Positions 1,169-2,505 of a stretch of DNA of 64,000 nucleotides are shown here, one piece after another. The stretch comes from Escherichia coli O157:H7 (GTDB lineage Bacteria > Pseudomonadota > Gammaproteobacteria > Enterobacterales > Enterobacteriaceae): NCBI RefSeq assembly GCF_013167455.1, contig NZ_CP038328.1. One strand, written 5' to 3'. The translations under genes were made by a program, and so were the position numbers. Below the pieces are notes generated by a model. It was given only the letters and a program-made list of their open reading frames with translations, searched no databases and was not told where the DNA came from. Position 1 is the first letter of the stretch. Each line of letters begins with the position of its first letter.

Positions 1169-2505
1169 ATGAACACTTCACCGGTGCGAATGGATGATTT
1201 ACCGCTTAACCGTTTTCACTGTCGAATTGCTGCGCTCACTTTCGGCGCACACCTGACCGACGGTTATGTTCTCGGCGTCATTGGTTACGCCATTATTCAA
1301 CTTACGCCCGCCATGCAACTGACGCCGTTTATGGCGGGAATGATCGGCGGCTCGGCGCACCTTGGTTTGTTTCTTGGCAGCCTGGTTCTTGGGTGGATCT
1401 CCGACCATATTGGTCGGCAAAAAATCTTCACCTTCAGCTTTTTGCTGATTACGCTCGCTTCGTTCTTGCAATTTTTTGCCACCACGCCAGAGCATCTTAT
1501 TGGACTGCGCATTTTGATCGGCATTGGTCTGGGAGGCGATTACTCAGTAGGTCACACCTTGCTGGCTGAATTTTCCCCGCGCCGCCATCGCGGTGTTTTG
1601 CTGGGCGCATTCAGCGTGGTGTGGACCGTAGGCTATGTGTTGGCAAGTATTGCCGGACATCACTTTATTTCCGAAAACCCGGAGGCCTGGCGCTGGCTGC
1701 TGGCATCGGCAGCTCTGCCCGCGTTGTTGATTACGTTATTACGCTGGGGAACGCCAGAATCGCCACGCTGGCTACTGCGCCAGGGGCGTTTTGCAGAAGC
1801 TCACGCTATCGTGCATCGCTATTTTGGTCCCCATGTTTTACTGGGCGATGAAGTGGCAACGGCGACCCATAAACACATCAAAACCTTGTTCTCTTCGCGC
1901 TACTGGCGGCGCACGGCGTTTAACAGCGTCTTCTTTGTCTGCCTCGTAATCCCATGGTTTGTGATTTATACCTGGCTGCCAACTATCGCCCAGACTATTG
2001 GACTGGAAGATGCGCTGACTGCCAGCCTGATGCTTAATGCGTTGTTAATTGTGGGCGCGCTGCTGGGATTAGTTCTGACGCACCTGCTGGCACATCGCAA
2101 ATTTTTGCTGGGAAGTTTTTTGCTGCTGGCGGCAACGCTGGTAGTGATGGCCTGTTTGCCTTCCGGCAGTTCATTAACGCTGCTGCTTTTGTTCTCTTCA
2201 GCACCACCATTTCGGCAGTCAGTAATCTGGTGGGCATTTTGCCTGCGGAAAGTTTTCCTACTGACATTCGCTCGCTGGGCGTCGGTTTTGCCACCGCCAT
2301 GAGTCGGTTGGGGGCGGCGGTAAGTACTGGCCTGCTGCCGTGGGTGCTGGCGCAGTGGGGAATGCAAGTCACCTTATTGCTCCTGGCGGCAGTGTTGTTG
2401 GCTGGTTTTGTTGTAACCTGGCTATGGGCACCAGAAACCAAAGCACTCCCGCTGGTGGCGGCGGGAAATGTAGGAGGTGCGAATGAACATTCTGTTAGCG
2501 TTTAA
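1169..2505 (+). pseudogene. ygcS: MFS transporter (YgcS-like) with apparent -1 frameshift near 2186-2200
   Basis: ATG at 1169 opens a membrane-protein frame that must switch to the frame of ORF 2230..2505 (FSTTISAVSNLVGILPAESFPTDIR...); 1337 nt total is one short of a 446-codon gene. Confidence 0.6.

Follow-up and report, generated by a model that had tools for sequence, protein, structure and literature searches.

The yg cluster and the two-frame structure of ygcS

The window, a 64,000-nt stretch of an Escherichia coli O157:H7 genome (contig NZ_CP038328.1), carries near its start the genes ygcU-ygcS-ygcR-ygcQ and, beyond them, ygcPON, in an order identical to that of K-12. The features of the locus, all on the plus strand, are as follows.

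2-1075, plus strand: 3′ part of ygcU, encoding a FAD-binding oxidoreductase, the intact upstream neighbor (open reading frame list, annotation)
1169-2505, plus strand: ygcS, 1337 nt, a pseudogene of a frameshifted MFS/sugar-porter-type transporter (orthology to K-12 b2771, from which one indel separates it; PGAP; Pfam)
2187-2190, plus strand: homopolymer of four Ts (T4), site of a 1-nt deletion; five Ts (T5) in intact alleles (only gap relative to K-12)
2189-2302, plus strand: out-of-frame tail, codons 341-377, up to the premature TGA at 2300-2302 (translation of 1169-2302)
2191-2505, plus strand: -1-frame remnant encoding TM10-12 of the native protein and its C-terminal PETK motif (translation, hydropathy)
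2472-2477, plus strand: AGGAGG Shine-Dalgarno sequence of ygcR, within the 3′ end of ygcS (sequence; 5 nt upstream of ATG 2483)
2483-3262, plus strand: ygcR, ETF beta/FixA-like, intact (annotation; K-12 alignment)
3259-4119, plus strand: ygcQ pseudogene, ETF alpha/FixB-like, GAA to TAA at codon 190 (E190*, 3826-3828) (PGAP ‘internal stop’; K-12 alignment)

The original prediction, made from the letters of the DNA, had identified the gene at 1169-2505 as ygcS, an assignment borne out both by orthology to K-12 b2771 and by the PGAP annotation. It had also counted 1337 nt, one short of a 446-codon gene, and K-12 ygcS is indeed 1338 nt long. Global alignment with this intact ortholog revealed 28 substitutions and a single gap, which falls inside the very T run (2187-2190) that had been proposed as the likely site of a 1-nt deletion. 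Here, K-12 reads CTGCTGCTTTTTGTT and the window reads CTGCTGCTTTTGTT, i.e., the T5 run that spans codons 340-342 of intact ygcS is shortened to T4. Because the indel was found by direct comparison with an intact ortholog—as opposed to a statistical pattern—chance is not at issue. The two genes are ~98% identical at the DNA level, the repaired protein (one T restored) differs from its K-12 counterpart at six of 445 residues, and many O157:H7 chromosomes of E. coli match the 1.46-kb ygcS region at 100% identity.

Translation from ATG 1169 in frame 0 gives ...SGSSLTLLLLFSSAPPFRQ..., followed by a stop at TGA 2300-2302. This frame is of MFS type up to ...SGSSLTLLLL, with unrelated residues after that point, while the -1 frame gives ...FVLFSTTISAVSNLVGILPAESFPTDIRSLGVGF... 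and ends at 2505, in agreement with the loss and regain of MFS character originally described. Initiation at the ygcS start no longer leads to translation of the remnant at 2191-2505. As to the start codon itself, PGAP places that of intact alleles at the upstream ATG 1097 (469 aa) and that of K-12 ygcS and of the pseudogene at ATG 1169 (445 codons); a Shine-Dalgarno-like GAAGGGG precedes ATG 1169, and no obvious one was seen before ATG 1097.

Predicted consequences for YgcS and its operon

The repaired YgcS matches the Pfam families Sugar_tr (PF00083; residues 29-429, E = 2.5e-52) and MFS_1 (E = 1.7e-31). It displays 12 hydropathy peaks, the last three of which (residues 339-357, 372-390, and 401-419) correspond to TM10-12, whereas the mutant product retains only nine native peaks. 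Residue 341, within the first few positions of predicted TM10 (peak 10, 339-357), is where the mutant and repaired proteins first differ. The mutant protein, 377 aa in length, thus comprises TM1-9 plus 37 aberrant residues; missing from it are TM10-12, the PAESFPTDIRSLG segment, and the PETK motif of the native C terminus. An uninterrupted open reading frame for 12 transmembrane helices is absent from the window's ygcS, whose frame is lost at codon 341. Since the MFS architecture needs two six-helix bundles and TM10-12 are gone, YgcS is expected to have lost its function: the 377-aa product would be unable to form the C-terminal bundle and is probably inactive.

With respect to the downstream genes, ygcR differs from its K-12 counterpart by 16 substitutions, with no indel and no stop. 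The native ygcS stop lies at 2503-2505 and the 3′ end of the gene overlaps ygcR by 23 nt; the premature stop instead falls 180 nt upstream of ygcR. Translational coupling between the two genes has presumably been lost, and the early stop might exert some polarity on ygcR, which should be able to initiate because it has its own AGGAGG at 2472-2477. Comparison with K-12 yielded dN/dS ratios of 0.09 for the repaired ygcS, 0.03 for ygcU, 0.24 for ygcR, and 0.23 for ygcQ, the first of which suggests that ygcS was under constraint, and functional, until recently.

The T4 allele across E. coli genomes

The lesion was followed across genomes with an 81-mer centered on the T run (window 2150-2230). Of 5094 complete E. 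coli genomes with the locus, 297 contain its exact T4 version; EDL933, TW14359, and EC4115 are among these carriers, as judged by record length. Among the matches listed without T4, the corresponding stretch measures 82 nt and hence contains T5. In the records of O157:H7 strains PV15-279 and TW14359, RefSeq/PGAP labels ygcS “MFS transporter, frameshifted” and ygcQ “internal stop”. The frameshift is therefore already known, in that public annotation flags it; no paper was found in the literature that combines ygcS and O157, and the papers naming ygcQ or ygcR were irrelevant to the ygcS lesion.

Nearly all sequenced O157:H7 strains carry the T4 mutation, the exceptions being SS17 and SS52. As regards a single frame restored by resequencing, 297 complete genomes keep T4 and T5 appears only in this pair of O157:H7 strains. 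A two-frame structure is likewise absent from the orthologs compared, K-12 ygcS and the O55:H7 alleles being intact and the listed genomes outside the lineage being one base longer at the site, which marks that structure as a derived state. We put at roughly 93% the probability that the ygcS frameshift is a genuine pseudogene mutation, fixed in the O157:H7 lineage as part of the continuing decay of a ygcU-S-R-Q unit that had been broken before.

Order of gene losses relative to O55:H7

The marker used to define the sister group O55:H7, a T at position 1345 of the window, is borne by ten genomes; a nearby G at position 2146 was discarded as an O157/O55 lineage marker, as 824 genomes of many lineages carry it. 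The state of ygcS was inspected in six of the ten. Five of these (USDA5905, CB9615, RM12579, 2013C-4465, and FDAARGOS_946) combine an intact ygcS with an internal stop in ygcQ, and the sixth, DEC5B, also has T5, by record length. An 81-mer containing the ygcQ TAA is found exactly in 308 genomes, and O55:H7 shares this stop. This number of carriers agrees with a tally of 309 made up of the 297 T4 genomes, SS17 and SS52, and the ten genomes with the O55 marker.

Because E190* is common to O55:H7, where ygcS is still intact, ygcQ was lost first, before O55:H7 and O157:H7 split, and ygcS followed on the O157 branch. The transporter gene inactivated here is not the same in the two sister lineages: the neighboring MFS gene yqcE, located upstream of the window, contains an internal stop in all five O55:H7-group genomes inspected for it and is intact in O157:H7. 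These losses, that of yqcE being independent, are consistent with a relaxation of selection across the entire locus following the break-up of the ETF pair.

For a pseudogene of this history, the course of events may be sketched as follows. Replication slippage would have removed one T from the T5 run of ygcS. Ribosomes starting at ATG 1169 would then leave the native frame at codon 341, add 37 unrelated residues, and stop at TGA 2300-2302, releasing a 377-aa product that, missing TM10-12, would be inactive. With ygcQ already dead, the loss of ygcS would amount to follow-on decay of the broken ygcU-S-R-Q unit under relaxed selection. On this account, the locus illustrates how a cryptic catabolic island decayed step by step as O157:H7 emerged, which carries little weight beyond correct annotation. 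As a clonal marker, the T4 allele itself cleanly tells O157:H7 and O55:H7 apart.

SS17 and SS52, and alternative explanations

A search with the repaired T5 allele returned O157:H7 strains SS17 and SS52 at 100% identity, and PGAP calls their ygcS intact. Over 49 kb, the two share every SNP with clade-8 TW14359 except one TW14359-specific change in rpoS, and the T run accounts for the sole indel between them and that strain over the same distance. Their ygcQ is still dead. Either, then, the ygcS lesion is non-universal in O157:H7 or it is able to revert; put differently, the T5 run of SS17 and SS52 is either an artefact of a shared platform or stems from a real back-mutation that occurred once, in an ancestor of both.

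Some further features were noted alongside. The gene nlpD (29880-31019, plus strand) harbors a 24-nt tandem repeat at 30073-30142 that encodes QQPQIQ(PV/AT) and is present in three units in the window and one in TW14359, a 48-nt in-frame difference (NlpD of 379 aa and 363 aa, respectively); the alignments of SS17 and SS52 break at the same repeat position. In the rpoS region, a single SNP at window position 31869 distinguishes TW14359 from the window, SS17, and SS52, and the RpoS protein of TW14359 bears accession WP_000081559.1 as opposed to WP_000081550.1. The SS52, SS17, and TW14359 records are each annotated with a complete type I-E CRISPR-Cas operon (cas3, casA-E, cas1, cas2) co-linear with window positions ~10,000-21,000, and in the same co-linear region a Hok/Gef toxin gene adjoins cysH.

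Homopolymer length miscalls are a known weakness of the Ion Torrent platform. According to their genome papers, SS17 and SS52 were sequenced on an Ion Torrent PGM and assembled by a combination of de-novo and reference-guided procedures. Sakai, EDL933, TW14359, and EC4115 served as comparison references, the guide for assembly being unspecified; all four would be T4. A published comparison of SS52 with TW14359 reported only seven homopolymer differences genome-wide. The genes ygcS, ygcQ, and ygcR go unmentioned in the genome papers of SS17 and SS52, supplementary tables included.

That SS17 and SS52 are true T4-to-T5 back-mutants, in which YgcS was re-selected in a cattle super-shedder sublineage despite a dead ygcQ, seems to us unlikely. 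Were it so, the lesion would be reversible in nature, YgcS would have a role independent of the adjacent ETF genes, and the re-selected transporter might possibly import nicotinamide or a related compound. A further claim, that the T run is a reversible phase-variation switch and the two strains revertants with YgcS regained, strikes us as very unlikely. It can draw on a T5 run that stands as the sole indel in 49 kb on a TW14359-like, clade-8-type background, in a genome (SS52) that is not riddled with homopolymer errors, as its seven differences from TW14359 attest; moreover, if one of the T4 comparison references guided the assembly, T5 must come from the reads. Against a switch, however, stands the tract itself. 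Known contingency tracts are homopolymers or repeats of typically seven or more units, far longer than the four or five Ts here. The O157:H7 lineage, furthermore, splits 297 to two in favor of T4, both exceptions share one laboratory, one platform, and one assembler, and with ygcQ dead in either strain the operon is not restored.

The converse suspicion, that the window's record lost its T through faulty sequencing or assembly and that ygcS is really intact, has hardly any chance of being correct. A homopolymer is a classic place for length miscalls and two O157:H7 assemblies do show T5, yet those two records are the Ion Torrent PGM ones, and the window's T4 is not a read error because the identical 81-mer recurs in the 297 independently assembled complete genomes, EDL933, TW14359, and EC4115 among them.

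We give equally little credence to recoding, whereby programmed -1 ribosomal frameshifting or transcriptional slippage would still yield full-length YgcS. In principle, a P-site -1 slip on T_TTG (2188-2191) would do so with F341L as the sole change. The zero-frame codons CTG CTT TTG TTC, however, contain no X XXY YYZ heptamer and allow only this single-tRNA slip, and the 70 nt downstream fold with a minimum free energy of -15 kcal/mol as compared to a shuffle mean of -14.0 (z = -0.38). With neither heptamer nor downstream structure, programmed frameshifting at ygcS was rejected. A T4-length tract is, in addition, too short for efficient slippage by RNA polymerase, and the two-frame state, seen in a single clone (297 of 5094 genomes), is derived from an ancestral ygcS with one open reading frame.

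Split or truncated MFS proteins occasionally retain some activity. Survival of ygcS as a functional truncated or two-piece transporter—the TM1-9 fragment with or without a C-terminal piece initiated at GTG 2230—is nonetheless scarcely credible: the 91-codon open reading frame at 2230-2505 does lie in the native frame and covers TM11-12, but TM10 would be broken up and in part lost, the N-terminal fragment is devoid of the conserved PAESFPTDIRSLG segment, and no Shine-Dalgarno sequence was found upstream of GTG 2230, so that separate C-terminal translation was rejected for want of a ribosome-binding site.

Comparison with known relatives

As an uncharacterised MFS protein, YgcS finds its best NCBIfam matches in aromatic acid:H+ symporters and sugar porters, with scores that all lie well short of the curated cut-offs. 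Among solved structures, SLC22 organic-cation transporters and GlcP come closest. A metabolic-engineering paper reports that a BLAST comparison with the Burkholderia niacin transporter NiaP gave K-12 YgcS as its best E. coli match (26.5% identity) and that cells overexpressing YgcS made more NMN from nicotinamide (PMC8601175). This result, an indirect measure, hints at nicotinamide as a possible substrate and at a resemblance to NiaP-type niacin/nicotinamide MFS transporters. O157:H7 probably lacks whatever uptake activity YgcS gives K-12, of which the nicotinamide-to-NMN effect (PMC8601175) is the sole experimental hint.

The closest counterparts of the window's gene are the putative MFS transporter YgcS of K-12 (b2771) and the O55:H7 alleles. 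The former occupies the same locus, with neighbors ygcW-ygcU-ygcS-ygcR-ygcQ and a divergent ygcPON, and has T5 and an intact 445-aa open reading frame where the window has T4 and a truncated 377-aa product. The latter (WP_000971923.1 and WP_000971922.1) are intact T5 alleles with ygcQ E190* in common with the window; in USDA5905, the only differences of ygcS from the window are a synonymous SNP at window 1345 and the length of the T run. Unlike the window's lineage, the O55:H7 group has the internal stop in yqcE. More broadly, no feature distinguishes ygcS from the generic class of homopolymer-frameshift pseudogenes of recent pathogen clones, with which it shares a single-base indel in a short homopolymer, clonal fixation, a peripheral catabolic or transport locus, and a partner gene that was already inactivated.
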